Part shown: piece after piece, positions 14,601-28,403 of the stretch | Position numbering within the stretch: the first letter of the stretch is position 1 | Layout: the number at the start of each line of letters is the position of its first letter | Assembly: GCA_049279335.1 (NCBI GenBank) | Contig: JBAPNX010000024.1 | Location: 375,211 to 439,210 of the forward strand | DNA from: Candidatus Dormiibacterota bacterium | Lineage (GTDB): Bacteria > Chloroflexota > Dormibacteria > Aeolococcales > Bog-877 | Length of the DNA stretch: 64,000 bases | Reading direction: 5' to 3' | Translations under genes and position numbers: made by a program | Notes under the pieces: model-generated | Databases searched by the model: none | Told to the model about the DNA's origin: nothing | Seen by the model: only the letters and a program-made list of their open reading frames with translations

Positions 14601-14820
14601 AGAGGGCGGAGCCGGGGTGCTGACCGAGAGGGAGTTGGACCGGATCGAGGCGGAGATCAACCGGGTGGCGGAGGCAATCCTCGGGGGTAGGTTCCCCGCC
14701 CAGCCGCGCCACGCTTTGCGGACCTGCAGGGACTCGCGGTCGGGCTGCCCGGTCGCCTTCTGGTGTGACGGCGAAGGCTCGGTGGGGGTGGACTTCCCCA
14801 CCCCGGCTCCAGAACTTTGA
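11656..14820 (+). CDS. adnA: AdnA/AddB-like subunit of a two-subunit helicase-nuclease (UvrD-like motor with weak motifs plus C-terminal RecB-family nuclease with Cys cluster)
   Basis: 1054 aa. Walker-A-like GGPRSGKTQ, DEAED box, helicase motif VI-like TISQAKGGAW. C-terminal PD-(D/E)XK nuclease motif GKVDALWRHPDGEVELVDYKTS. Cys ligands LACPRQY ... CRDSRSGCPVAFWC, consistent with an Fe-S-bearing AddB/AdnAB-type nuclease domain. Confidence 0.7.
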   Translation: MPVRALPLEVGLRDLVGPTRVVGGPRSGKTQLLVELAVEWLLGGGDPKRLVLVVRSGSSAALLQRRVEAMLPGAHPAPLVQTHERLARAVLATVGESAKPAVRLSRVGEWLAMREALSRARASLPRLGELVAEPSCIDDALAVTSAFKRALVGPGLLAQRLRGAPVSLREMVVVAASYQTVLEQMGSRDPRDWHGLALTALEDPSAMRDWAEVMLVDEAEDLSPAQWFLVRELGRRLSPPGRLVLAGHWSESAPGFRGVSSECSSRPFEQYFPSEMAADEWVLPSALRGWSQALVAELGLGTDEQVEDQSGAEAQTAAEAAFRVSPTARVWQAVDETGEAMAVAREILRARLAGEVDFGDVAVLVRSPGSQLVPIQAALSSLGIPHRLHGGGGWTGDPVVAVVRNWLRVLCSHHDDQALLTALGMGPQAVSPAAIAALRRDAGLSNCSVTTVFWAAMRSDQNPDAAEWDELRRAGRPWLRLGAGDPGVGGRELDWPQLRALLGELELAAGLAAAALENLEVATVLAELTRVAAETAEATGRLNRPRRSLTAWLELLELAVRHAGGEEPDRESDRSEVSVLTISQAKGGAWSRVFLCGCVDGTIPAPVDSGGMLDAEEVSELVRLVPELEDVLSSGDSQQDAESRLFLVALTRATAGVTCSWARRYRGRPAERSPLLQALIAAGCVETAAPHAELVTADDLLIELSLVAVTPEPAPPGRDPLGSAAADLRQALAPWDPVADGAGTVAGPVSISATSLASWLACPRQYLAHTLELAHDRGINLTLGVQAHQLLQRLYQGKADWEDRPLGFRTAAAELLREKVMPEVRAEEWDPLKVLFAELWLGEMVSRWERRVVAAGESAVGEPIAEEVSFELPRSGWRLRGKVDALWRHPDGEVELVDYKTSRFKSSDAALRAEVFGKPHDGPKQWQLPIYQLAARDGAFEDQLGRHLPARVRNWYVGVEPSSKGPDPISAAGFRVVTGAEEEGGAGVLTERELDRIEAEINRVAEAILGGRFPAQPRHALRTCRDSRSGCPVAFWCDGEGSVGVDFPTPAPEL

Positions 14821-17800
14821 ACCAGCGCCAGGCCTTCCTCGCCCTGGCCGAGGCGACTCTGACCCCAGCCCAGTTCCAGGTGGTGCAAGAACTGGGCCGA
14901 GGGCCGGTCAAGGTGGTGGCTGGGGCGGGCAGCGGCAAGACCACCACCATGGCCTATCTGTACGCCGCCGCCGTGGTCAGCGAGATCCCGGTGGGACGGA
15001 TCATGGCGGTCACCTTCACCGATCGGGCCGCCGTGGAGCTGCGGGCGAAGATCCTTGATGCCCTGGCTGCGGCTCGGCTGGTCCCAGCAGGAGCCGGACC
15101 CGATCCCCTCGAGGGAGCCTGGATCGGCACCTTCCATCAGCTGATCCGGCGGATGCTGGCGGAGCACGCCTACCTAGCCGGCCTGCCTCGGGATCTGGAA
15201 CTCGTCGACGAGGTGGTGGCGGGGATGGTGATGGAGGAGGCGCTGGACTCGGTGCGCCAGCAGGCGGCTACGTCCAGTTGGATGCAGCAGCTGCCACCTC
15301 AGCCCGACCCCCGCACCGTTCTTGGGCTCCTTGGCGGAGCCCGCGCCGCGGTGGAGCGACTCCGCTCCACCCAGCTCGAGGCAGACCAGTGCGAGCAGGA
15401 GTCCCTAGCCGCCTACGAATGGTTCGCCGCCAGTGGCGACTCTGCAGTGGAGATCGCCTGGCACCGAGCTGGGCTTGAACTGACAACCACCGTCTGGGCG
15501 GAGTACGAAGGTCGGCTCGCAGAACGTCAGACGCTCGACTTCGACGGGCTCCTTCGCCAAGGATTGCGAGCCCTGAGGAGCTCACCCGCCCTGCTCAGCT
15601 GGTGCCGTTCCACCTTCGAGCTGGTGATCGTCGACGAGTATCAGGACACCAGTGCCCTCCAGGAGTCAATGCTCCTGGAGCTCACTGGGCCGGCTCAGCG
15701 CAGCCTCTTCATGGTGGGCGACGCCCGGCAGTCGATCTATGCCTTTCGGGACGCCAAGCCCGGGATCATGACCTACGCGGCCGGCCGACCCTTCGGCCTG
15801 TTCCGCAACCACCGCTCGCGAAAGCCGATATTGGCTGCGGCCGATTTCGTAATCCGGGGCGATCCTCAGTTCGCAGACGACGATCCCATGGAAGCGGCCC
15901 GCGAGGGCGATTCCCCGCTCCCGGTCTGGGTCGCCGAGGTCGACCACCCCTCCAAGGAGGCAGAGGCGATCGCCGACGCGCTCCAGCAACTGCACCGGGA
16001 CGGGATCAATTATCCCGACGGCAGCCACCAGGACCTTCGCTGGTGTGACATGGCGGTACTCGCCTACACCCTCGGCCGGCTCGGTCTGTCGCTCGAGGAG
16101 TCGCTGAGGCTGCGAGGTATCCCCTTTCAGACCGTGAGCGGGGGGCTGTTGGCTCGGCCTGAGGTCAAGGATGTGCTGGCCTTCCTCAGGCTGGCGGCAG
16201 ACGACCGCGACGACCTTGCCTGCTTGCGCGTGCTGCAGTCACCGGTGGGGCGGATCCCGGACCGGGCCTTGCTTTCCCTGCGGCCCCGCCGGGGCGAGCG
16301 GGGTGCCTCGCTGGCCGAGCGGGCGCGTCGACACCTGGAGGAAGGCGGCGCGGGATGGGAGAGGTCGTGGACGGATCGTGCCCGGCGCATCCTGGCGCTG
16401 ATCGAGAAGCTCCGCGCCGCCGGCCGAACCTCTCCCGCTAGTCAGGTGCTGGCCCTGGCTCTGGCAGAGAGCGGTCTCCTGCGGCTGCAGCGAGCTCGAG
16501 TCCGGGCAGCGGACCCTCTGGGGCGCCGGGCCCTGGATGCCCTCTCAGAGCTGCAGCGGGTGGTTTGGGCCGCGGAGTCCAGCAGCCGCTGGCTCGGCTT
16601 GGGCGAACTGCTGGCCCGACTGGATGCCATGCGGGAAGACGCCACGACTGCCGAGCCGACGCCCCAGACCGACGAGGACCTGGTGACTATCAGCACCATC
16701 CACCGGGCCAAGGGCCTGGAGTGGCCCGTGGTGGTCCTGGCTGACTGCCGGCCCTACCAAGCGAGAAACCCTGGCTCGGTCATCTGGGACCGGCAGGCCA
16801 AGGCGGTCATCTGCACGCGAGTCGCCGGAGTCAAAACCTTAGCCTTCAAGCGCTGGTCTGAGAGTCCGGCCAAGAGGATCGACCTCGAAGAGCGTCGGCG
16901 CCTGATCTATGTGGCGATGACCAGGGCACGCGACCTGCTCTTGGTGACCACCAGTCGCAGCGGCACTCAGGGTGAGTTTGTCGAACTGGCCGCGGCGGCG
17001 GCGGGGCCGGCCAATTGGGCCAGCGAGTGGCCCGATTTCGCCGCCGAGGTGAGGCTGCCGTGGGCGGCGGCTGCGGGCGCCACCGGGGGCGTCACACAAA
17101 CCGGCGCTGCCGATGCGCAGCGCACCGTTTCAATGGCTCGGCTAAGGCAACGCTGGCTAGAGATAGAGCAGCTGCAAGCTACTGCCGGAACCGGCGTCTT
17201 CCGGCCAAAGCAGCTCAGTTTCACTGCAATGGAGACTCTTAACCGCTGCCCCCGGCAGTACTGGTATCGCTATCTGGCCCAGTATCCGATCGACTCAGCC
17301 GACCCAGGCTCGCCCAGGGGCCTCGTTGATGACGAATGGGGGGGCGAATCCGAGGGGATCGGCAGCGAGGCGGCTCGGGAGTTGGGCATTGCCGTGCACC
17401 AGGTCCTGGAGCGACTGCATGCCAGCCAACCCCTACGAGCCCCGACTCCCGTGGAGGCCGAAGTGGCGCTGGATGCGATGGCGGACAGCCTCAGTCTCCA
17501 GCAGCGGGACCTGGCGGAGGACATGGTCGGTCGCTACATCGCTGGGCGGGCTGCGGGGCTGCCAACGGTAGCCACCGAATTCAGCTTCAGCTGGAGAGAC
17601 TGGGCCGGACCCGGCTGTCCCACCCTGATCGGTGTCATCGACCGAGTCGCGCAGCTCCCGTCGGGCCAGCTCCTGATCATCGACTACAAGACCAACGTCA
17701 GCCTCGCGCCTGGGGAGCTGGCCGACTACTCGCGGCAGCTCCAGCTTTACGCGGCGGCGGTCACCGCCGGGGTGATGGGGACTGCAGTGCGGCCGCCGGC

Positions 17801-18041
17801 CACCGCGCTGGCCATGCTCCGGTCAGGGGAGCTGCTCGAGGTGCTAAGTGGCGACCTCGAGCGCCGGCAGGCGCTCAGCTGGGCCGCCGATGCGGCGCGC
17901 CGGGTCGAGGTGGGTGACTACCGATCGGCGGAGGCATTCCCCGCGCGCCCCTGCACTGCTTGTCCCTTTGTCGAGCGTTGTCCCGAACGCCGGCCAGGCA
18001 TCGCCGCGGGCTTAGCTGGGGAGCTTGAAGAGTCCCTGTAG
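14817..18041 (+). CDS. adnB: AdnB/AddA-like helicase-nuclease subunit (UvrD/Rep-family motor plus RecB-family nuclease)
   Basis: 1074 aa. Walker A AGAGSGKTT, motif II VIVDEYQDTS, motif III VGDARQSIYAFR. C-terminal LIIDYKTN nuclease motif and Cys cluster NRCPRQYW ... CTACPFVERCP. TTG start overlaps the upstream stop (TTGA), suggesting translational coupling. Confidence 0.75.
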   Translation: MNQRQAFLALAEATLTPAQFQVVQELGRGPVKVVAGAGSGKTTTMAYLYAAAVVSEIPVGRIMAVTFTDRAAVELRAKILDALAAARLVPAGAGPDPLEGAWIGTFHQLIRRMLAEHAYLAGLPRDLELVDEVVAGMVMEEALDSVRQQAATSSWMQQLPPQPDPRTVLGLLGGARAAVERLRSTQLEADQCEQESLAAYEWFAASGDSAVEIAWHRAGLELTTTVWAEYEGRLAERQTLDFDGLLRQGLRALRSSPALLSWCRSTFELVIVDEYQDTSALQESMLLELTGPAQRSLFMVGDARQSIYAFRDAKPGIMTYAAGRPFGLFRNHRSRKPILAAADFVIRGDPQFADDDPMEAAREGDSPLPVWVAEVDHPSKEAEAIADALQQLHRDGINYPDGSHQDLRWCDMAVLAYTLGRLGLSLEESLRLRGIPFQTVSGGLLARPEVKDVLAFLRLAADDRDDLACLRVLQSPVGRIPDRALLSLRPRRGERGASLAERARRHLEEGGAGWERSWTDRARRILALIEKLRAAGRTSPASQVLALALAESGLLRLQRARVRAADPLGRRALDALSELQRVVWAAESSSRWLGLGELLARLDAMREDATTAEPTPQTDEDLVTISTIHRAKGLEWPVVVLADCRPYQARNPGSVIWDRQAKAVICTRVAGVKTLAFKRWSESPAKRIDLEERRRLIYVAMTRARDLLLVTTSRSGTQGEFVELAAAAAGPANWASEWPDFAAEVRLPWAAAAGATGGVTQTGAADAQRTVSMARLRQRWLEIEQLQATAGTGVFRPKQLSFTAMETLNRCPRQYWYRYLAQYPIDSADPGSPRGLVDDEWGGESEGIGSEAARELGIAVHQVLERLHASQPLRAPTPVEAEVALDAMADSLSLQQRDLAEDMVGRYIAGRAAGLPTVATEFSFSWRDWAGPGCPTLIGVIDRVAQLPSGQLLIIDYKTNVSLAPGELADYSRQLQLYAAAVTAGVMGTAVRPPATALAMLRSGELLEVLSGDLERRQALSWAADAARRVEVGDYRSAEAFPARPCTACPFVERCPERRPGIAAGLAGELEESL

Positions 18042-19358: not shown

Positions 19359-19709
19359 TTAGGAGCGCTTGGCGGCAGTGCGACGGCGTGATGCGGTCTT
19401 GCCCGCGACGGCCGCCTTCAGTCCGGTGGAGGGGTAAAAACGCACCTTCTGAGAAGCCGGTACCCGCACCATCTCCTGGGTCTGAGGATTGCGCCGTAGG
19501 CCAGCCGCGGTCTGCCGGACCTTCCAGCGACCGAATCCGGCGACCGAGACCTCGCCGCCACCCTGGAGCTCGGTGCTGATGATTTGGAAGATCAGCTTGA
19601 GGGTGTCATCGGCAAGCTGAAAACTTGAGAAAAATGGCTCCTTCTTGCCTTCGTCGTTCTCAAATTGGATGCGGGTTTGTAGGGTTTTGGCCAGCTCACG
19701 GCGATTCAT
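19359..19709 (-). CDS. hup: HU family DNA-binding protein with short basic C-terminal tail
   Basis: FQIISTELQGGGEVSVAGFGRWKVRQTAAGLRRNPQTQEMVRVPASQKVRFYPS is the HU/IHF fold signature. Lys/Ala-rich tail as in actinobacterial HU. Start at MNRRELAK. Confidence 0.85.
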   Translation of the reverse strand: MNRRELAKTLQTRIQFENDEGKKEPFFSSFQLADDTLKLIFQIISTELQGGGEVSVAGFGRWKVRQTAAGLRRNPQTQEMVRVPASQKVRFYPSTGLKAAVAGKTASRRRTAAKRS

Positions 19710-19856
19710 AGATGTAGATCCTCCCTTGGGACGAACTGAGACGGTCAATGCGACGCACGAATACTAAGGAAAACGTGGGAGGTTGTGCAGGTTTCGTAGC
19801 TGCACAGTGGCTGCTTCCCGGCCTTTTCCCGAGCCTGAGCCCGGGATTTGCCTTGA

Positions 19857-19870
19857 CGAACATACGTTCG
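19857..19870. promoter_or_regulatory. LexA (SOS) box, Cheo/actinobacterial type CGAAC-N4-GTTCG, upstream of imuA'
   Basis: cGAACatacGTTCg is a perfect palindromic match to the GAAC-N4-GTTC core. Flanked by TTGACG (19853-19858) and TATACT (19871-19876) promoter-like hexamers. Lies 77 nt upstream of the imuA' start. Confidence 0.6.
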
Positions 19871-19946
19871 TATACTTGGGGAGGGCCAGGCCGGCGACCT
19901 AACCCCGCCTCGGCCCCCTCCAGAGCTTCACACAGGTGGTTTTCCA

Positions 19947-20765
19947 GTGTCCTCAAAGCCGGTCGGGCGGGGGGAGGGGAGGCTCGCCAAACCACTGGTT
20001 GGAGCTCTGGAGTCGGCGCTGTCCGCGCTCAGCCACCGCTATGGCCCGGGGACGGTTCAGGCTGGAGTTCCACCACCGCTCCTGGGGCTGGCAACTGGGG
20101 TGAGCGTCCTGGACGCCCTCACCGGGTGCCAAGGTCTGCCCCGGGGCCGTATCAGCCGGTTGCTGGGCAAGCCTTCGTCTGGGGCGTTCGATCTCGGTTT
20201 AGCACTGGCGGCGGACGCGTCCCAGTCCGAATCGGTAGCCCTGGTCGACTTCACCCTGGAGGTGGATCCCGGCGCTGTCGAGGCCTATGGGGGTGAGCTG
20301 GACAACTTCTGGCTGGTCAGGCCAAGGAGCTCGGAGGAGGGTTGGGCGGCGGCCAGAGCCCTGGCCAAGGCGGGGGTGGGTCTCTGTCTGCTGGTGGCCG
20401 ATGACTGGTCCCGTCTCACCCCCGGCGCTGCCCCCGCGGCCCTGTTGGCTGCCCTCTCCGAAGGAGCTGGCGCGGGCTTGGTCCTGGGAGGAGGGCGGAT
20501 CCCGGCAGCACTCAAGGAGAGGATCTGCCTGGAGCTGGAGTGCTGGCGCCTTGATTGGTCTTGGGCCCATGGGGATATCTGTGGTCTCCGGACGAGGGTG
20601 CAGGTCAGCCGCAGCCATCTAGGTGCTCCTGGGGCCAGCTGCCAACTGCAGCTCAACTTTCCCCGGCCCTATCCCCTGCGGATCGGTCTCGAGGTGTCAG
20701 TGGCGGTAGGGGATGAGGAGTTGGCGGCGGAGCCACTGCCTCAGGCGGCTGGGAGTCAGCGGTGA
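19947..20765 (+). CDS. imuA: ImuA' - RecA-derived mutasome protein with degenerate Walker A
   Basis: 272 aa, alignable to the RecA core (ALESALSALSHRYGPG..., LDALTGCQGLPRGRISRLLGKPSSGAF..., ALVDFTLEVDP...), but the P-loop is GKPSSGAF rather than GPESSGKT. GTGA overlap with imuB. Confidence 0.65.
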   Translation: MSSKPVGRGEGRLAKPLVGALESALSALSHRYGPGTVQAGVPPPLLGLATGVSVLDALTGCQGLPRGRISRLLGKPSSGAFDLGLALAADASQSESVALVDFTLEVDPGAVEAYGGELDNFWLVRPRSSEEGWAAARALAKAGVGLCLLVADDWSRLTPGAAPAALLAALSEGAGAGLVLGGGRIPAALKERICLELECWRLDWSWAHGDICGLRTRVQVSRSHLGAPGASCQLQLNFPRPYPLRIGLEVSVAVGDEELAAEPLPQAAGSQR

Positions 20766-22003
20766 GCCAGAGCCGCAAGGCGCGCCTGGCCTGCCTCACC
20801 TTTCCCCACCTCGCGCTGGTGCTGGTTTGGCGTGCCCATCCCGAGCTCAAGCCAGAGCCGGTGTTGGTGGGGGGCCAGGGCCCTGGTGGCAGGCAGGTGG
20901 TGATGGCGGCTTCAGCGCCTGCCTGGGCCCGGGGGGTACGGCCCGGCCAGGATTGGCGTCGGGCGGAGGTCCTCTGCCCCTTGGGGGCTCGGTTCTCGGC
21001 CGACCCTGCAGCTTTGACCGAGCTGCGGCGGATCGCCCGGCTGGCGCTGGCCGCCTGCAGCCCGCTGGTGGAGTGGGGGGATGACGCCAGCGCCTACGTC
21101 GATCTGGCCGGAAGCGATCCCATCAGGCCTCAGGAGGGGTTGCGGGCCGCTCAATGTGGCCGTGCCATCGAGGAGGCTCTGGGAGTGACGCCCAGTGTCG
21201 GCGTGGGTCCCTCTCGCTTCTCCGCCTGGGTGGCGGCTCAGCTGGCAGCCCCGGGCCGGGTGCGCCTGGTCCCGGAGGGAGAGGCCGCGGAATTTCTGGC
21301 CAATTGGCCGGTAACCGAACTGCCGATCCCTCCCCAAGTCGCGGAGCGGCTGGTTCAGTTCGGTCTCCATACCTGTGGCGATTGCGCCTCGATCACCATG
21401 GTGGAGCTACAACGCCAGTTCGGTCCGGATGGGATTCTTCTCCACCGACTCTGCCGGGGACAGGACTCAGCCGGGGTCGATCCCTGGTGGGCGGCACTCC
21501 CCTGTGGGGTGCGCCGGGTCCTGGCGGGGGGAGTCGACGACTCCGAGTCGCTTCGCTTCGGTGCCGCCGAGCTGGCCAGAGGCTTGGCCCAGGAGCTGTC
21601 CCGCCAGGGACAGGCGGCGGGACGGATACGGCTGCTCCTGCGCGGCGAGGACGAGACCAGGCATCCGGCTCAAGCGGACCGGCAACTCTGGTGGGGTGAG
21701 GTGGCGCCCCCCGCTCCCATGGCCACCGCCGATGAGCTGATGGGGCCGCTGCTCAGCCTTTTCAGCAAAGCTCGTCTCCTAGCCCCAGTGACGGTGGTGG
21801 AGCTGGAGGCCTTGGACCTGGTTGCTCCCCCGGTGAACCAGATCGGACTCTGGCAGGGGCGGGCGGCTGACCGAGAGGTGATCAAGCGGGCGGTGGACCG
21901 ACTCCACGACCGATTCGGCACCGGTCTGGTCTGGCGGGTGGAGGTACGTCCAGGGCACCCTGGGGACGTACCCGAGGAGCGGCTGGTCTGGAACTCCCGT
22001 TGA
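20762..22003 (+). CDS. imuB: ImuB - catalytically inactive Y-family polymerase-like mutasome protein
   Basis: N-terminus LACLTFPHLALV lacks the catalytic Asp/Glu of Y-family polymerases but keeps the fold motif LGVTPSVGVGPSRFSAWVAAQLA (compare G.T.S.GIA.NK.LAK). Lies between imuA' and dnaE2. 413 aa, which is shorter than the 527-aa M. tuberculosis ImuB. Confidence 0.7.
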   Translation: MSQSRKARLACLTFPHLALVLVWRAHPELKPEPVLVGGQGPGGRQVVMAASAPAWARGVRPGQDWRRAEVLCPLGARFSADPAALTELRRIARLALAACSPLVEWGDDASAYVDLAGSDPIRPQEGLRAAQCGRAIEEALGVTPSVGVGPSRFSAWVAAQLAAPGRVRLVPEGEAAEFLANWPVTELPIPPQVAERLVQFGLHTCGDCASITMVELQRQFGPDGILLHRLCRGQDSAGVDPWWAALPCGVRRVLAGGVDDSESLRFGAAELARGLAQELSRQGQAAGRIRLLLRGEDETRHPAQADRQLWWGEVAPPAPMATADELMGPLLSLFSKARLLAPVTVVELEALDLVAPPVNQIGLWQGRAADREVIKRAVDRLHDRFGTGLVWRVEVRPGHPGDVPEERLVWNSR

Positions 22004-22248
22004 CTTCGATCGAGGTTCGATCCGGAGGTGTGGCGGCTAGTCCACTGGCGGTGGACACCGGCACCGGCTGGGTGGGGGTGGAGGAGGTGGTGGAGCGCTG
22101 GCGAGTCGAGGTGGGCTGGTGGCGGGTCCCCTCTGAGCGTCCGGTCCAGCGCAGCTGCTGGCGAGTGCTGCTCGCGGATGGCCGCTGCCTCGACCTGCGG
22201 CTGGATCTGGCCTCCCGGCGTTGGGGGTTGGAGCGGACCTGGGGATGA
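22000..22248 (+). CDS. Small Trp/Arg-rich hypothetical protein overlapping the imuB stop (possible detached ImuB C-terminal module)
   Basis: 82-aa ORF with TTG start overlapping the imuB TGA (TTGA): ...VVERWRVEVGWWRVPSERPVQRSCWRVLLADGRCLDLRLDLASRRW. No recognisable domain. Confidence 0.35.
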   Translation: MTSIEVRSGGVAASPLAVDTGTGWVGVEEVVERWRVEVGWWRVPSERPVQRSCWRVLLADGRCLDLRLDLASRRWGLERTWG

Positions 22249-22346
22249 GACCGAACGTCTTCTGCTAGCGTCACTACATGCCCGACCGCCCGGCCACATC
22301 GACCTCGCCTCCGCCTTCGAACGCCCCACCCGGCGGGCGGCCGCCC

Positions 22347-24278
22347 ATGAACTACCGCTCGATGCGCAACTGGCTGCCGCTGATCATCATCCTGGTCCTC
22401 AACGTCCTGATCGTGAACGTCTTCCTGGCTCCATCCGCCCCCAAGACCATCACCATCCCCTACAGCACCTTCGTCAAAGACGTCGGCGGGAACGACGTCA
22501 GCAGCATCACCACCAGCTCGGGAACGATCAACGGCACCTTTCGGCATCTGACCGGGACCACCGCCACCTCCAAGACCAAGGCCAGGTATTTCACCACCCA
22601 GGTGCCCAGCTTCGCCGGGGGCGGCCTGGAGACCCTGCTCCAGAAGCACAACGTGACCATCAACGCCGAGAGCACCCTCACCCCCTTCTGGGAGGAGCTG
22701 CTGCTCAGCTTTGGTCCCACCTTGCTGATCGTCTTCGGCTTCATCTATTTGATGCGCCGGGTCGCTGCCTCGTCCAGTGGTGGCCTCTTCAGCATGGGGC
22801 GGAGCCAGGCCCGCCTCTACGATGCGGAGCGACCGGCCACCACCTTCGCCGATGTCGCGGGGATCGAGGAGGCAAAGGAGGAACTCGAGGAAATCGTGGA
22901 TTTCCTGCGCCAACCGGCCAAGTACCAACGCCTCGGTGGCACCGTGCCCAAGGGAGTGCTGCTGGTGGGGCTGCCCGGCACCGGAAAGACCCTTCTAGCC
23001 CGGGCGGTGGCGGGCGAGGCCAAGGTGCCCTTCTTCAGCCTCTCGGCCTCGGAGTTCATCGAGATGATCGTGGGAGTGGGTGCGTCGAGGGTCCGGGACC
23101 TCTTCACCAAGGCCCGGGCCGCGGCCCCGGCCATCATCTTCATCGACGAGCTCGACGCCATCGGGCGCAGCCGGGGAGCCGGGCCGAGCTTCGGGGGCCA
23201 CGATGAGCGCGAGCAGACGCTGAATCAGATCCTCACCGAGATGGACGGATTCGACTCCCGCGAGGGCGTGATCGTTCTCGCTGCCACTAACCGCGCCGAC
23301 GTGCTGGATCCGGCGCTGCTCCGGCCCGGGCGCTTCGACCGCCGGGTCATGGTCCAGCCCCCGGACCGGGTGGGCCGGGCCGCGATCCTCAAGATCCACA
23401 CCCGGGGAGTGCCCCTGGCCGATGACGTTGATCTCAACATCGTGGCCTCCCAGACCCCAGGACTGGTGGGCGCCGAGCTCCGCAACCTGGTTAACGAGGC
23501 GGCGCTCCTGGCCGCACGCCGCGACCGCAAGGCGGTGGCCATGGCCGACTTTACCGACGCCTTTGAGAAGGTACTCCTGGGGGCGGCCAGACGAATCGTT
23601 CTCTCCGAGGAGGACCGACGCCGCACCGCCTGCCACGAGAGCGGTCATGCCCTGCTGGGGCTGCTCATCCCCGAGGCCGACCCGGTGCGACGGGTTTCGA
23701 TCGTGCCTCGAGGGCGGGCCCTAGGGATTACGGTCCAGTCCCCGGTCGACGACCGCCAGAACTACCCCGAGACCTACCTCCGGGCCCGCATCGTCGGGGC
23801 GCTCGGGGGCCGGGCCGCTGAGAAGCTGGTCTACGACGTGGTCACCACCGGCGCCGAGAGCGACCTCCAGCAGGTGACGATCATCGCCCGGCAGATGGTG
23901 GTCCACTGGGGGATGAGCCCATTGATTGGTCCGCTCAACCTGACCGAGGAGCCAGACCAGCAGGCCCTGGTGATGCCGCAGCGGGCTTACAGCGAGGTGA
24001 CCGCCCAGGTGATCGATTCCGAGGTAAAGCGGATCGTGGAGGAGTGCTTCGCCGAGGCCTGTGATCTGCTGAGCAAGAATCGGGACAAGCTGGAGGCGTT
24101 GACCCAGGCCCTGCTGCGCGACGAGTCCCTCGACGAGGATGAGATCCTCAAGGTCACCGGCCTTTCCCCCAAGCCCAGCGCGGCACCGCCGCCTGCGATC
24201 TCCGGCAATGGGGTGGGCGGGGCTCCTCCCGAGCCGGACCCCGCCCACGAGCACCCTGCTCCCGAGCCGGTCCGCTAG
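22347..24278 (+). CDS. ftsH: ATP-dependent zinc metalloprotease FtsH
   Basis: N-terminal TM helices. AAA module with [17 protein letters not shown], and [26 protein letters not shown]41 HEXXH site [13 protein letters not shown] at 22347; the upstream part of the listed ORF is Pro-rich and non-native. Confidence 0.9.
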
Positions 24279-25015
24279 AACCAGATCCGCATCGCGATCC
24301 CCAGCTCGCGGTCGGTCTCGTCAGCATGGCTAGGGACCCAGCTGGCCTTGCCGGCGACGATTCGACGGGCGGTCCAGAGGCAGGCGTAGGCGTCCAGCGC
24401 GTCCTCGCTTGAGGGGCGGCGGGGATTGACCCCAGCCACCTCGGCGAACTCGGCCAGTAGCAGCCGCCGCCGGTGGGACCGCCCCTCGACGGTGTGCTTG
24501 GACCCGAGCGCGGCCCCGCCGAGCTCGCGAAAGGCAAGTTCCGGGTGACCCTCGTAGAACTTCTGAGCGTCTCCGCGTACCAGCGCCTCGTCGACCTCCC
24601 GGACCTTGGCCAGGATCCCGAAGGCCTGGCGCGACAAGCCCTTGCCCTCGATCTGGCGCCGGATGTCCTGGGCCTGCTGGTAGCTGGTTGCGCTCAGCAT
24701 CGGGCGCAGAGGGGCTGGGAACACGCTGGTGAGGCGGGGCCACCCCAGGAGTCGGCGGGCCTCCAGGTCGCAGGCTCGGGCGCCTCGCGTGGGCAGCCCG
24801 ATGGGGATGTCGAGGACGGCGGCTAGCACCGAGTGTCGGTTGCTGACGGCGGCCAGGAGGGGGGTGTCCCAGTGCTCCAGGGAGGTGGTCTGGTCGGCGT
24901 ACTGGAGGGCCACCATCCAGCCACCGGGGCAACCATCGGCGCCTATCAGCCTAAGGGCGGAGGGCACTGGCAAATCGTAGACCTGAGGGGAGTTGGAGGC
25001 CACTAAAGCGAACAT
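24275..25015 (-). CDS. DUF429 family protein (predicted RNase H-like nuclease)
   Basis: LRLIGADGCPGGWMVAL matches the DUF429 GIDGC.GGW signature. 3' end overlaps the ftsH stop (CTAG shared). The 5' end is uncertain: candidate starts at 25015 (ATG), 24973 (TTG) and 24967 (GTG). The longest one overlaps the dnaE2 SOS box. Confidence 0.55.
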   Translation of the reverse strand: MFALVASNSPQVYDLPVPSALRLIGADGCPGGWMVALQYADQTTSLEHWDTPLLAAVSNRHSVLAAVLDIPIGLPTRGARACDLEARRLLGWPRLTSVFPAPLRPMLSATSYQQAQDIRRQIEGKGLSRQAFGILAKVREVDEALVRGDAQKFYEGHPELAFRELGGAALGSKHTVEGRSHRRRLLLAEFAEVAGVNPRRPSSEDALDAYACLWTARRIVAGKASWVPSHADETDRELGIAMRIWF

Positions 25016-25022
25016 CAGTTCG
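25009..25022. promoter_or_regulatory. LexA (SOS) box upstream of dnaE2, with adjacent -10-like TATCAT
   Basis: gCGAACatcaGTTCGt is a perfect CGAAC-N4-GTTCG palindrome. TATCAT sits at 25023-25028, only 6 nt before the dnaE2 ATG (25035), suggesting a leaderless or very short-leader transcript. Confidence 0.6.
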
Positions 25023-25034
25023 TATCATGTGGCG

Positions 25035-28000
25035 ATGCCTCAGCTCAGCTTCTCGGAACTCTGGGCCCGTTCCTACTTCTCCTTTTTGGAAGGTGCCAGC
25101 GCCCCCGAGGCGATGGTCGCCCGGGCCGCCGAACTGGGGATGGCCGCCTTGGGCCTGGTGGATCGAGGCGGCCTATATGGAGCGGTACGGTTGGTCCAGG
25201 CTGCCGAGAGGGTCGGGCTGGCTGCCATGGTGGGGGCGGAACTGGACCTGGAGGGTGGGGGCCGACTGGTCCTGCTGGCCACCGACCGCCCCTCGTACCA
25301 ACAGCTCTGCCGAGCGGTGAGCCGGGCCCAGTTGGCGGGGGACAAGGGGGCCCACCGCCTCCACCTGACGGGACTGCAAGCAGTCCTCGCCGACGCTGCG
25401 GGCAGGGTAGGCGGTGAGCGCGATGCCGTCCCCTTGCCAGCGCTGACCCGGCGACGGAGCCGGCAGGACGGAGCGGAGGTCGCCGCTGACAGCCAGGTGG
25501 CGCCGGAGCAGGTCAGCCGCTGCACGGTGATGGCGGGAGGACCCCACAGCCCCATCAGCCTGGCCCTTCTCCGTGGTGACAGGGAGGCGGCCGATCGGGC
25601 TGCCCTGGCCCTCCGCGAAGCCTTCCCCAGAGGCCTGGTCTACCTCTCCATGCACCACCATCTCCATCCCGGAGACAGCTGGCTGGCGGCGGAGACCGCC
25701 GCCTGTGCGCTGCGGACTGGGGTGGGTCTCTTGGTTTCAGGCGCTCCCCGTTATGCCACAGCTCCCGAGGCGTCCCTCTTGGACGTGCTCACCGCCATTC
25801 GCCACAACTCCACCCTGGATGAGGCAGCCGAGCGAGGGCTGCTACTGCCCAACCACCAGTACCAGATGCGAGATGGGGACCAGCTGAGGGAGCTGCTCCC
25901 ATATCCGGCTGCCTTCCAGGCCACCGCCGATCTGGCTGCCCGAGCCGAGCTCAAGCTCGACTTCCGCCACAGCCGCTTCCCCGGCTTCAGGGCGCCTTCG
26001 GGACTGAGCCCCGATCAGTACTTGGAGCAGCTCTGCCGCCGAGGGCTGCCGAGCAGATACCCGACTCCCAGCGCTGAAGTTGAGGCCCGGCTGGTCCATG
26101 AGCTCCGGGTCATCGCCAAGTGCAAACTGGCCGAGTTCTTTCTCATCGTCTGGGAGCTGATGGACTTCGCCTCCCGCGAGGGGATACCGGCCCAGGGCCG
26201 GGGTTCCGCCGCCGACAGCCTGGTGGCCTACCTGCTGGGCATAACCCGGGTCGACCCCATTGCTCACCGCCTGCTCTTTGAGCGCTTTCTCCACGAGGAG
26301 ATGCAGGGCACTCCCGACATCGACATCGACATCTCGACTGCCCACCGGGAGCAGTTGCTCCGCCACGTCTACGACACCTACGGCCAGGATCGCACCGGGA
26401 TGGTGTGCACCGTCATCACCTTCCAGCTCCGGATGGCGGTCCGCCAGGTAGGGGCCGCCTTCGGGCTGCCCCAGCCGGTGGTGGACAAGCTCAGCCGCTC
26501 GGTGGACCGCTGGTACGGGAAGGGCGAGCAGGCCATGGTCGCCCAGCTGCTGGAGTCGGCTGGCGAACTCCCGGAACAGGTCCTGGTCTCACCGTCCTGG
26601 CGCCAGTTCGCCAGCATGGTGGAGGCGGTGGTGGGAGTGCCGCGCCATCTCTCCATCCATGTCGGCGGCATGCTGGTCACCGGAGAGCCGCTCTGGGATA
26701 TCGCCCCCTTGGAGCGAGCCACCATGCCCGGCCGGGTGGTGGTCCAGTTCGACAAGGACGACGTCGAGGACCTGGGCCTGATCAAGATCGACCTGCTTGG
26801 GCTGCGCACCCTCTCGGTGGTGGCCGAGACCCTTGACGAGCTGGAGCAGGCCACCGGTGAGCGCCCCGACCTGGAGGCACTGGACCTAGCCGACCCAGAG
26901 GTCTATGCCATGTGCGCCAGGGCTGACACCATCGGGGTCTTTCAGATCGAGTCGCGGGCCCAGCAGCAGACCCTGCCCCGCACCAACCCCAAGGAGTTCA
27001 ACGACCTGGTGGTCGAGGTGGCGATCATCCGGCCCGGCCCCATCCAGGGCAAGGCGGTCCACCCCTACATGCGCCGCCGCCAGGGTCGTGAAGAGGTGAG
27101 CTACCTCCATCCGCTGCTGGAACCGATCCTCCACGACACCCTGGGGGTGATCCTCTTCCAGGAGCAGATCCTGGAGATCGCCATGCAGCTGGCGGGATTC
27201 AGCGCCGGGGAGGCCGATCGCTTCCGCCGGGCCATGAACCGCCATCGCTCCCGGGTGGAGATGGGCTCCCTGGAGCAGGGATTTCTGGACGGCTGCTCTC
27301 GCCACCAGGTGTCGAGGGAGGTGGCGGCCGAGCTGTTCGAAGCAGTGAGGGGCTTCGCTGAGTTCGGTTTCTGCCGCAGCCATGCCGCCGCCTTCGCCCG
27401 CACCGCCTACGAGACCGCCTGGCTGCGGCTCTACCATCCCGCCGCCTATCTGGTGGGGCTGCTCAACCACCAGCCCATGGGTTTCTATCACCCGTCGGTG
27501 CTGGTCGAGGACGCCAAGCGGCGCGGAGTCAAGGTGCTCTCCGTGGACGTCAACCTCAGCCGGAGCCGCTGTCATCTGGAGGAGGGATCCAGGACTCCCC
27601 GCCAATTCGGCGTCCGACTCGGCTTCAACTACGTCAGAGAGCTGGGCGGGAACCTGGGTGAAGAGCTGGATCGAGAACGTGAGCTGGGCCCGTACCGATC
27701 ACCGGAGGACTTCTGGCGCCGTACCGAACTCTCCCGACCGGCGCTGGACTCCCTGGTGATGGTGGGTGCCCTGGACAGCTTTGGTGAGTCCCGCCGCAAA
27801 CTGCTCTGGCGGCTCAAGACGGTAGAGGAGGAGCTGGCGGGGAGCCGCGGACCGCGATCCACCCTCATCCCCGGACAGGCTGAACCGGTGAGTGCCAGGC
27901 AGCAGCAGTTGCTGGCGCTGCCGGCGGAACCACCGCGGCTGGCGGATCTGACCGCGAGGGAGCGGGCCGCGGCCGACTACCGAATCATGGGTCTGACCAC

Positions 28001-28403
28001 CGGAGAGCACCTGGTCTCCTTCCTGCGGCCGCAGCTGGCCGAACTGGGGGCGATTCCTCTGGCTGAGGTGAGAGAGGCGGGCAATGGCAGAAGGGTGCGG
28101 GCCGCCGGGCTGGTGATAACCCGCCAAGCGCCCTACTCCGCCCACGGCATGCGCTTCTTCACCGTGGTTGACGAGACGGCGCACCTGGACCTGGTTCTCC
28201 GCCCCCAGGTCTACCGGGCCCACCGGTCCTGGGCCAACCATGAGCCGGTGATCTGCGCCGAGGGGGTGTTGCAGGTGGCGGACGGGGCCCTCAGCCTCCT
28301 GGTCGAGAAATTGCTGCCACTACCCCGGCCGGTGCCCCAGGCGGCTGACCCTAGCCCGACCGACTCGTTGTTCCCCGCCCCGTCGGCTCACGACTACCAC
28401 TGA
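25035..28403 (+). CDS. dnaE2: Error-prone DNA polymerase III alpha subunit DnaE2 (ImuC)
   Basis: N-terminal PHP domain (FSFLEGASAPEAMVARAAELGMAALGLVDRGGLYG), polIIIalpha core and C-terminal OB fold. 1123 aa from ATG 25035, typical of DnaE2 rather than the replicative DnaE1 (about 1180 aa). Confidence 0.85.
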   Translation: MPQLSFSELWARSYFSFLEGASAPEAMVARAAELGMAALGLVDRGGLYGAVRLVQAAERVGLAAMVGAELDLEGGGRLVLLATDRPSYQQLCRAVSRAQLAGDKGAHRLHLTGLQAVLADAAGRVGGERDAVPLPALTRRRSRQDGAEVAADSQVAPEQVSRCTVMAGGPHSPISLALLRGDREAADRAALALREAFPRGLVYLSMHHHLHPGDSWLAAETAACALRTGVGLLVSGAPRYATAPEASLLDVLTAIRHNSTLDEAAERGLLLPNHQYQMRDGDQLRELLPYPAAFQATADLAARAELKLDFRHSRFPGFRAPSGLSPDQYLEQLCRRGLPSRYPTPSAEVEARLVHELRVIAKCKLAEFFLIVWELMDFASREGIPAQGRGSAADSLVAYLLGITRVDPIAHRLLFERFLHEEMQGTPDIDIDISTAHREQLLRHVYDTYGQDRTGMVCTVITFQLRMAVRQVGAAFGLPQPVVDKLSRSVDRWYGKGEQAMVAQLLESAGELPEQVLVSPSWRQFASMVEAVVGVPRHLSIHVGGMLVTGEPLWDIAPLERATMPGRVVVQFDKDDVEDLGLIKIDLLGLRTLSVVAETLDELEQATGERPDLEALDLADPEVYAMCARADTIGVFQIESRAQQQTLPRTNPKEFNDLVVEVAIIRPGPIQGKAVHPYMRRRQGREEVSYLHPLLEPILHDTLGVILFQEQILEIAMQLAGFSAGEADRFRRAMNRHRSRVEMGSLEQGFLDGCSRHQVSREVAAELFEAVRGFAEFGFCRSHAAAFARTAYETAWLRLYHPAAYLVGLLNHQPMGFYHPSVLVEDAKRRGVKVLSVDVNLSRSRCHLEEGSRTPRQFGVRLGFNYVRELGGNLGEELDRERELGPYRSPEDFWRRTELSRPALDSLVMVGALDSFGESRRKLLWRLKTVEEELAGSRGPRSTLIPGQAEPVSARQQQLLALPAEPPRLADLTARERAAADYRIMGLTTGEHLVSFLRPQLAELGAIPLAEVREAGNGRRVRAAGLVITRQAPYSAHGMRFFTVVDETAHLDLVLRPQVYRAHRSWANHEPVICAEGVLQVADGALSLLVEKLLPLPRPVPQAADPSPTDSLFPAPSAHDYH

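Follow-up and report, generated by a model that had tools for sequence, protein, structure and literature searches.

Stand-alone forms of ImuB-C, the C-terminal domain of the mutasome protein ImuB, were described in 2013 (PMC3765255), published again in 2021 and surveyed in 2019 and 2026 (PMC6511836, PMC12926913). According to the surveys, systems with a free ImuB-C have no ImuA in either the operon or the genome, and only DnaE2A goes with ImuA and ImuB (PMC6511836, PMC12926913). Here we analyse a 64-kb stretch of DNA from a Candidatus Dormiibacterota bacterium (64,000 nucleotides of contig JBAPNX010000024.1, hereafter the window), in which an imuA-like gene and imuB are followed by an open reading frame (ORF) of 82 codons, here named imuB-C, and 2.8 kb downstream of the latter by dnaE2 (imuC). 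This small ORF very probably encodes the free-standing ImuB-C of a naturally split ImuB, for which we propose a link to DnaE2 in trans. The cassette is new in one respect, that an ImuA-like protein is encoded alongside the free ImuB-C, and it is a modest variant.

The locus among described mutasome systems

The ImuY cassette of Deinococcus, in which ImuY- and DnaE2-dependent SOS mutagenesis has been demonstrated experimentally, resembles the Dormibacteria locus in pairing an inactive Y-family protein with a free ImuB-C of ~80 amino acids and with DnaE2 under RecA/LexA control. It differs in gene content, as Deinococcus has no ImuA and carries lexA within the operon, whereas the Dormibacteria operon begins with a presumably inactivated RecA paralogue and contains no lexA. 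A further difference is that ftsH and other genes separate imuB-C from dnaE2 in the lineage of the window.

The similarity to the mycobacterial ImuA'-ImuB-DnaE2 mutasome is more extensive in its parts: a RecA-like accessory protein without ATPase motifs and a dead Y-family scaffold in which a clamp-binding motif precedes a RecA N-terminus-like (RecA-NT) motif (PMC11791113, PMC10421592), together with the same ImuB-C domain, DnaE2, SOS regulation and a layout split between imuA'-imuB and dnaE2. ImuB-C is, however, covalently joined to mycobacterial ImuB through a linker of ~34 amino acids, whereas in Dormibacteria it is a separate protein of 82 amino acids. The covalently attached ImuB-C by which a canonical mutasome is recognized is thus missing from Dormibacteria, while the core, the clamp motif and RecA-NT are present.

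A third group, the DnaE2X-iPolY-ImuB-C-RecA or 'split ImuB' modules (e.g. Kyrpidia tusciae), shares with Dormibacteria a free-standing ImuB-C, DnaE2 and an inactive PolY that carries RecA-NT, and has been described as a possible ancestor of the canonical system (PMC6511836, PMC12926913). In these modules ImuA is reported to be absent and RecA is presumed to substitute for it, whereas the Dormibacteria operon encodes an ImuA-like protein; their ImuB-C forms of ~95 amino acids also carry an N-terminal 'RPLNxP' extension that the Dormibacteria ImuB-C lacks. We found three more split loci outside Dormibacteria (L088-L090), encoding a PolY of ~393 amino acids, an ImuB-C of 87–96 amino acids and DnaE2, and no RecA-family or imuA-like gene was called in any of the three. 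In two, imuB-C is called as starting ~50 nucleotides (nt) inside polY, and its product has an 'LRxLNxP'-type N-terminal extension that the Dormibacteria protein does not have; an SRAP (DUF159) gene lies near two of the three loci.

Finally, the DnaE2B-[ImuB-C] pairs of Actinobacteria (e.g. Arthrobacter alpinus; PMC12926913) resemble the Dormibacteria loci in having imuB-C directly upstream of dnaE2, a layout that we also found, with an SOS box, in nine loci of Thermoleophilia (L074-L079, L084, L085 and L087). They differ in that no Y-family or ImuA-like gene lies nearby: the Thermoleophilia loci hold only dnaE2 and an imuB-C of 107–123 codons. A looser parallel is offered by UmuD' (Pol V) and YolD/YqjX (YqjW), which are likewise small, beta-rich subunits, encoded adjacent to the polymerase gene, that complete a Y-family, RecA-dependent mutasome (PMC6511836). 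These proteins are not homologous to ImuB-C and have SH3-like cores, whereas ImuB-C is reported to be a different beta-barrel (PMC12926913); UmuD moreover needs self-cleavage.

In the literature searched, no paper linked Dormibacter* with imu genes, and the restriction of the published surveys to complete genomes probably explains why a phylum known to us from metagenome-assembled genomes (MAGs) only was not covered. We lean, if only slightly, towards regarding the set predicted here (a dead, ImuA-like paralogue of RecA together with a shortened ImuB, an unattached ImuB-C and DnaE2) as an undescribed mutasome composition, arising either as an evolutionary intermediate or by secondary fission of the canonical form. 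As an intermediate, it would connect the 'split ImuB' systems that depend on RecA with the canonical ImuA-ImuB-DnaE2, in which ImuB is fused.

A conserved gene for a free ImuB-C

The single Pfam match of the 82-amino-acid protein was DUF6504 (PF20114; E 7.8e-5, 23.3 bits), a name for which our literature search ('DUF6504') found no paper. Among its orthologues, P0005-P0007 carry a precomputed PF20114 match and P0008 is named 'DUF6504 family protein' by NCBI. When 1.84 billion representative proteins were searched by HMMER with a profile of the Dormibacteria ImuB-C, 89 matches were obtained at E <= 1e-3, most of them free-standing proteins of 70–160 amino acids. Five, however, were proteins of 416–576 amino acids aligned at their last 60–75 residues (library-wide E 1e-6 to 4e-4), four of which carry Pfam IMS domains and the fifth only DUF6504. 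Comparison of the Dormibacteria family with the C-termini of these five long proteins by hhalign gave 99.2% (E 3e-19) over 75 of the 82 columns; a comparison with ImuB C-termini and with small proteins from genes that follow imuB had been proposed in an earlier sequence-only reading of the window.

The residues that Aravind et al. (2013) described as the ImuB-C signature (PMC3765255), namely W-x-[VI]-[DE]-x-x-W-W-[RD] with a conserved Arg and a C-terminal Trp, are found here as RWRVEVGWWR, R51 and W75, and W40, W41 and W75 are invariant across 68 family members. An AlphaFold2 model based on the 68-sequence alignment was all-beta with six strands (predicted local distance difference test, pLDDT, 91.6; predicted template modelling score, pTM, 0.80). 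A fold search with this model returned no specific PDB neighbour, which agrees with the published description of ImuB-C as a 'novel beta-barrel fold' (PMC12926913). As judged from profiles, signature and model, the protein is homologous to ImuB-C over its whole length, and with an ImuB that appears to end in the linker (see below) this bears out the initial suggestion of a split C-terminal module or separately encoded small partner.

The imuB-C frame is -1 relative to that of imuB and is open upstream to a stop at 21868. The TTG overlapping the imuB TGA, the length of the ORF and its peptide are as the sequence-only reading gave them, and the richness in Trp and Arg that it pointed out comes to seven Trp and 12 Arg over the whole protein. 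When 5.8 billion proteins were searched by a word index, they yielded an identical 82-amino-acid protein in one Candidatus Dormibacteria MAG, eight further relatives of the same length with identities down to 62%, and one of 85 amino acids that is visibly frameshifted; the nine good sequences have 36 invariant columns in common. Five of these relatives, for which the surrounding DNA was retrieved, all showed a RecA-like gene, then a Y-family gene (411–414 codons) and then the 82-codon gene, which overlaps the Y-family stop by 4 nt. Codon comparison of the window with five fetched loci gave pairwise ratios of non-synonymous to synonymous change (dN/dS) of 0.14–0.48 at dS 0.7–1.2, and the GC content at third codon positions (GC3) is 0.80, similar to that of imuA and imuB. 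Because of these homologues, dN/dS values and GC3, imuB-C is a protein-coding gene under purifying selection, the opposite of the non-coding statistics that the earlier reading had named as a possible outcome.

To gather related loci, a narrow alignment of ImuB-C was run against 185,579 species genomes; the loci were then annotated by phmmer with the window proteins as queries. The narrow alignment biases the 80 loci obtained towards Dormibacteria-like ImuB-C, and their counts say little about other phyla. They come mostly from Dormibacterota MAGs of many species, others being labelled Chloroflexota or Thermoleophilia. The imuB TGA is overlapped by an ATG, GTG or TTG start of imuB-C (NTGA) in 60 loci (L001-L007 included), nearly all of which have an imuA-like gene upstream; dnaE2 falls within the retrieved stretch in 51. 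Where a related locus contained imuB, an imuA-like gene was almost always detected as well. The order imuA-imuB-imuB-C-dnaE2 is contiguous in most Dormibacterota, and in the lineage of the window ftsH, in some loci together with an MFS gene and DUF429, stands between imuB-C and dnaE2. In 11 loci the called end of imuB and imuB-C are separated by 0.4–5.3 kb; the detached imuB-C lies immediately upstream of dnaE2 in all 10 whose stretch extends past imuB-C. Throughout the loci examined, imuB-C was always beside imuB or dnaE2.

Nine of the detached loci (L019, L023, L031, L033, L035, L041, L045, L046 and L086) have an insert of 0.9–5.3 kb and a second SOS box ahead of imuB-C, and eight of these nine share similar imuB ends (…GTCGTAGGCT…). 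The insert of L019 (2902-7980) holds an ORF of 1185 codons whose product looks, by eye, like a nucleotide-cyclase/ATPase/TPR-type regulator, and two ORFs of 127 and 299 codons that appear, also by eye, RidA-like and alpha/beta hydrolase-like respectively. A mobile element at the imuB/imuB-C junction was suspected from a recurrent GACGTC GTAG GCTTCGCC end, an idea that was dropped as the L019 insert consists of ordinary-looking genes.

The position of the split can be read from ImuB itself. Its frame ends after 413 codons, as first noted, and the shortfall of ~110 amino acids then estimated against M. tuberculosis ImuB is about right when judged from the 525-amino-acid ImuB of M. smegmatis, in which the clamp motif occupies residues 352–356, RecA-NT 360–387, the linker 388–421 and ImuB-C 422–525 (PMC11791113). 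By position and similarity, QIGLW of Dormibacteria ImuB corresponds to 352-QLPLW-356 of the M. smegmatis protein. It is directly followed, in the same order as in mycobacterial ImuB, by a RecA-NT-like motif (AVDRLHDRFGTGLVWRV, ~366-393) that resembles the RecA N-terminus and is conserved in all aligned ImuB orthologues. The tail is conserved across the phylum as DPGDLPERRFxW, and its PERR element is also found ahead of ImuB-C in fused Y-family proteins and at the PolY C-terminus in other split systems. Since the 413-amino-acid ImuB retains clamp motif, RecA-NT and PERR tail, the split is placed in the linker; Dormibacteria ImuB is thus predicted to end inside the counterpart of the mycobacterial RecA-NT/ImuB-C linker. 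None of the Dormibacteria Y-family homologues down to 51% identity is fused, all being ~400–430 amino acids long.

ImuB reads 'CLTFPH' where E. coli DinB has 'HVDMDC', so that D8 and D10 are replaced by T and P, and the equivalent of DinB D8 is never acidic in the aligned ImuB orthologues. By this alignment, ImuB is a catalytically dead homologue of Y-family polymerases.

The product of the upstream gene matches Pfam RecA over residues 20–161 (E 1.4e-11) and scores 25.7 bits against the NCBIfam ImuA model (cut-off 150) and 46.9 bits against the RecA model, both far below cut-off. Alignment with 19 orthologues and with E. coli RecA revealed a degenerate Walker A (GKPSSGAFD or GPSGRLT vs GPESSGKTT in RecA, with the Lys/Thr lost), deletion of the L1/L2 loop regions and absence of the RecA C-terminal domain. 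The N-terminus is RecA-NT-like, with the motif LxxALxxLxxRYGP. A RecA-like protein lacking Walker A/B is what defines the ImuA1 and ImuA2 groups (PMC12926913). On this evidence the gene is classed as a predicted inactivated, ImuA-like RecA paralogue, which may stem from an independent RecA duplication. The protein could in principle self-associate or cap a RecA filament, besides accepting the RecA-NT of ImuB.

A proposed assembly in trans and competing explanations

In the mechanism that we propose, imuA-imuB-imuB-C would be transcribed from a LexA-box promoter and dnaE2 from a LexA box of its own. The TTGA overlap suggests that translation of imuB-C is coupled to that of imuB, a coupling deduced from the stop/start overlap by itself, and such NTGA overlaps would favour ImuB-C being made in equimolar amounts with ImuB. 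Clamp-bound ImuB would, by analogy, recruit the ImuA-like protein through RecA-NT; after DNA damage, the 82-amino-acid ImuB-C would join the complex non-covalently and bridge the clamp-bound ImuB/ImuA platform to the PHP domain of DnaE2. In AlphaFold models of the M. tuberculosis mutasome, the largest ImuB-DnaE2 interface is that between ImuB-C and the DnaE2 PHP domain, ImuB-C also touches ImuA, and the ImuB thumb touches the (HhH)2 region of DnaE2 (PMC12926913). Experimentally, ImuB without ImuB-C still binds ImuA' via RecA-NT (PMC11791113). That imuB-C adjoins imuB in one lineage and dnaE2 in another would fit a bridging subunit, and these alternative linkages among Dormibacteria lineages suggest that it could be tethered either way. 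If the cassette is indeed an undescribed mutasome composition, ImuB-C would be a small subunit in its own right, with a function like that of UmuD', tethered to the ImuB/ImuA platform or to DnaE2. In a metagenomic protein of 182 amino acids (P0090), the reading frame continues from ImuB-C into a sequence typical of the DnaE2 N-terminus (MSYIELHAKSFHSF…). This protein has either lost a stop codon or is a natural fusion of ImuB-C and DnaE2; the fusion, if real, supports a direct partnership of the two.

Several points weigh against this interpretation. The DUF6504 score sits just below the gathering threshold of the family (24.2 bits), and a Shine-Dalgarno-like GGAG 6 nt 5' of the imuB-C start is found in a subset of orthologues only. 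Product, start codon and protein contacts are all predicted from the sequence of an uncultured organism known as MAGs only, and the proposed bridging in trans is drawn from gene neighbourhood and from models published for mycobacterial ImuB, in which ImuB-C is fused. In addition, Aravind et al. proposed another role for ImuB-C, the recognition of damaged DNA (PMC3765255).

This last proposal leads to the alternative that survives best, although we consider it improbable: ImuB-C would act mainly as a DNA- or lesion-binding sensor that recruits repair enzymes (Aravind et al., 2013), and not as an adaptor between DnaE2 and ImuA/ImuB. The strongly basic and aromatic composition of the protein would suit a sensor, as would the occurrence of stand-alone ImuB-C with many repair systems besides that of DnaE2 (PMC3765255). 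Published AlphaFold models nevertheless put ImuB-C at the DnaE2 PHP and ImuA interfaces (PMC12926913), and the constant neighbourhood of imuB or dnaE2 in our loci, reduced to dnaE2 alone in Thermoleophilia, argues for an adaptor. The two roles are mutually compatible.

A programmed -1 ribosomal frameshift ahead of the TGA, yielding a fused ImuB::ImuB-C alone or beside the separate products, is very unlikely. Between 21871 and the junction the -1 frame has no stop, and slippage at any of the last 44 codons would yield a canonical-like fusion, but region 21871-22003 contains neither an X XXY YYZ heptamer nor a homopolymer of five or more bases, and start codons stand exactly at the overlap in the 60 NTGA loci. 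Moreover, fusion is impossible in the ~11 genomes with a detached imuB-C, most of which have an SOS box ahead of it.

We give almost no credence to the idea that the split reflects an assembly indel or a recent mutation breaking a fused imuB of ~495 codons, even though adjacent ORFs in frames one base apart, the downstream one free of stops for 130 nt before its TTG, would be compatible with it. NTGA recurs in many species, in the assemblies of separate sequencing projects and with ATG, GTG or TTG as the start, the Dormibacteria Y-family homologues are uniformly short, purifying selection acts on the frame of imuB-C itself, the two genes are kilobases apart in some genomes, and there is no homopolymer at the junction. 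The comparative data thus exclude an assembly frameshift or pseudogene, and the frameshifted ImuB C-terminus that the sequence-only reading had offered as one option falls with them, given the widespread NTGA, the detached genes and the lack of a slippery site or homopolymer. That imuB-C is a chance ORF and no gene can be dismissed as negligibly probable: GC-rich DNA does give many long spurious ORFs and several antisense ORFs overlap the region, but family-wide homology, dN/dS below 0.5, a conserved length and a high-confidence fold all speak for a gene.

A separate, conserved ImuB-C in the presence of ImuA would mean that ImuB-C need not be covalently joined to ImuB, even where ImuA belongs to the system. 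Should the mutasome composition prove to be a new one, Dormibacteria genomes would offer a natural separation-of-function system for ImuB-C; the 82-amino-acid protein is in any case a compact, well-folded target for probing DnaE2-PHP, ImuA and DNA binding separately. For annotation, the 82-amino-acid 'hypothetical proteins' of Dormibacteria should become ImuB-C and the 413-amino-acid 'DNA polymerase IV' proteins ImuB-like inactive Y-family proteins. Beyond this annotation and the natural construct, the finding is confirmatory: the earlier description of the ORF as a candidate missing piece of the mutasome was fair for this locus, but free ImuB-C has been in the literature since 2013.

SOS boxes, neighbouring genes and layout of the locus

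Only two exact CGAAC-N4-GTTCG palindromes (Cheo/LexA-type) occur in the window (Table 1), the first ~75 nt 5' of imuA, within the one promoter-like site seen in this region. In related loci a box ~85 nt upstream of imuA is almost universal, and one precedes dnaE2 in much of the lineage of the window. Nine of the 11 detached loci, and one locus without imuB, have a second box 43–172 nt upstream of imuB-C. From this distribution, nearly every transcription unit with mutasome genes has its own predicted SOS box, and the cassette is predicted to be under SOS control by these LexA-type boxes.

Table 1. Coordinates of the features discussed, in positions of the 64-kb window.
Feature	Position	Strand	Basis
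Promoter-like site TTGCCT-17-TATACT, enclosing SOS box CGAACATACGTTCG (box 19857-19870)	19848..19876	+	sequence pattern
Alternative TTGACG in the imuA promoter-like site	19852-19857	+	by eye
imuA-like gene, 272 amino acids, stop overlapping imuB start	19947..20765	+	Pfam RecA; RecA/orthologue alignment
imuB, 413 amino acids, GTG start, TGA at 22001-22003	20762..22003	+	Pfam IMS, IMS_HHH_1, IMS_C
Beta-clamp-binding-type motif QIGLW, ImuB residues 360-364	21839..21853	+	position and similarity
RecA-NT-like motif GRAADREVIKRAVDRLHDRFGTGLVWRV, ImuB residues ~366-393	21857..21940	+	alignment; expected ImuA-binding element
C-terminal tail PGDVPEERLVW, ImuB residues 400-410	21959..21991	+	conservation; 'P-E-[ER]-R' motif
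TTGA stop/start overlap of imuB TGA and imuB-C TTG (22000-22002)	22000..22003	+	sequence
imuB-C, 82 amino acids, stand-alone ImuB C-terminal domain protein (DUF6504)	22000..22248	+	profiles, model
ftsH, 29 nt 3' of imuB-C	22278..24278	+	ORF
DUF429 gene	24275-25015	minus	ORF
Second SOS box CGAACATCAGTTCG, then TATCAT	25009..25022	+	exact palindrome
dnaE2 (imuC), error-prone C-family polymerase, likely ATG 25035	25035..28403	+	orthologue N-termini

The dnaE2 ORF as called begins at TTG 24993, and orthologue N-termini favour the later ATG. Its product is a DnaE-type polymerase of ~1120 amino acids with PHP, DNA_pol3_alpha, finger and HHH_6 domains (Pfam, orthologues). As the TATCAT (25023-25028) ends only 6 nt before this ATG, dnaE2 may be translated from a leaderless mRNA. 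The divergent DUF429 gene has its annotated start at 25015, within the SOS box of this site. In seven of the related loci (L025, L031, L033, L034, L039, L065 and L083), mostly MFD-series MAG assemblies, dnaE2 is broken into several ORFs, probably by sequencing indel errors; frame breaks in single assemblies are common in these data, and comparative support is needed.

No terminator-like site was seen between imuB-C and ftsH (22249-22278 of the window). The ftsH start lies ~20–190 nt past imuB-C throughout the lineage of the window (L001-L017, L020 and L054), and in other Dormibacterota dnaE2 follows imuB-C directly, without an intervening ftsH; some transcripts of the SOS operon could run on into ftsH.

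Upstream of the cassette, no SOS box was seen for either of two genes that are syntenic in related loci. One (14817-18041) encodes a UvrD-type helicase with a C-terminal PD-(D/E)XK nuclease domain (AddA-like, 1074 amino acids), and the other is an ORF of 129 codons (19359-19748), divergent from imuA, that occupies the position of an HU-type (Bac_DNA_binding) gene in related loci.

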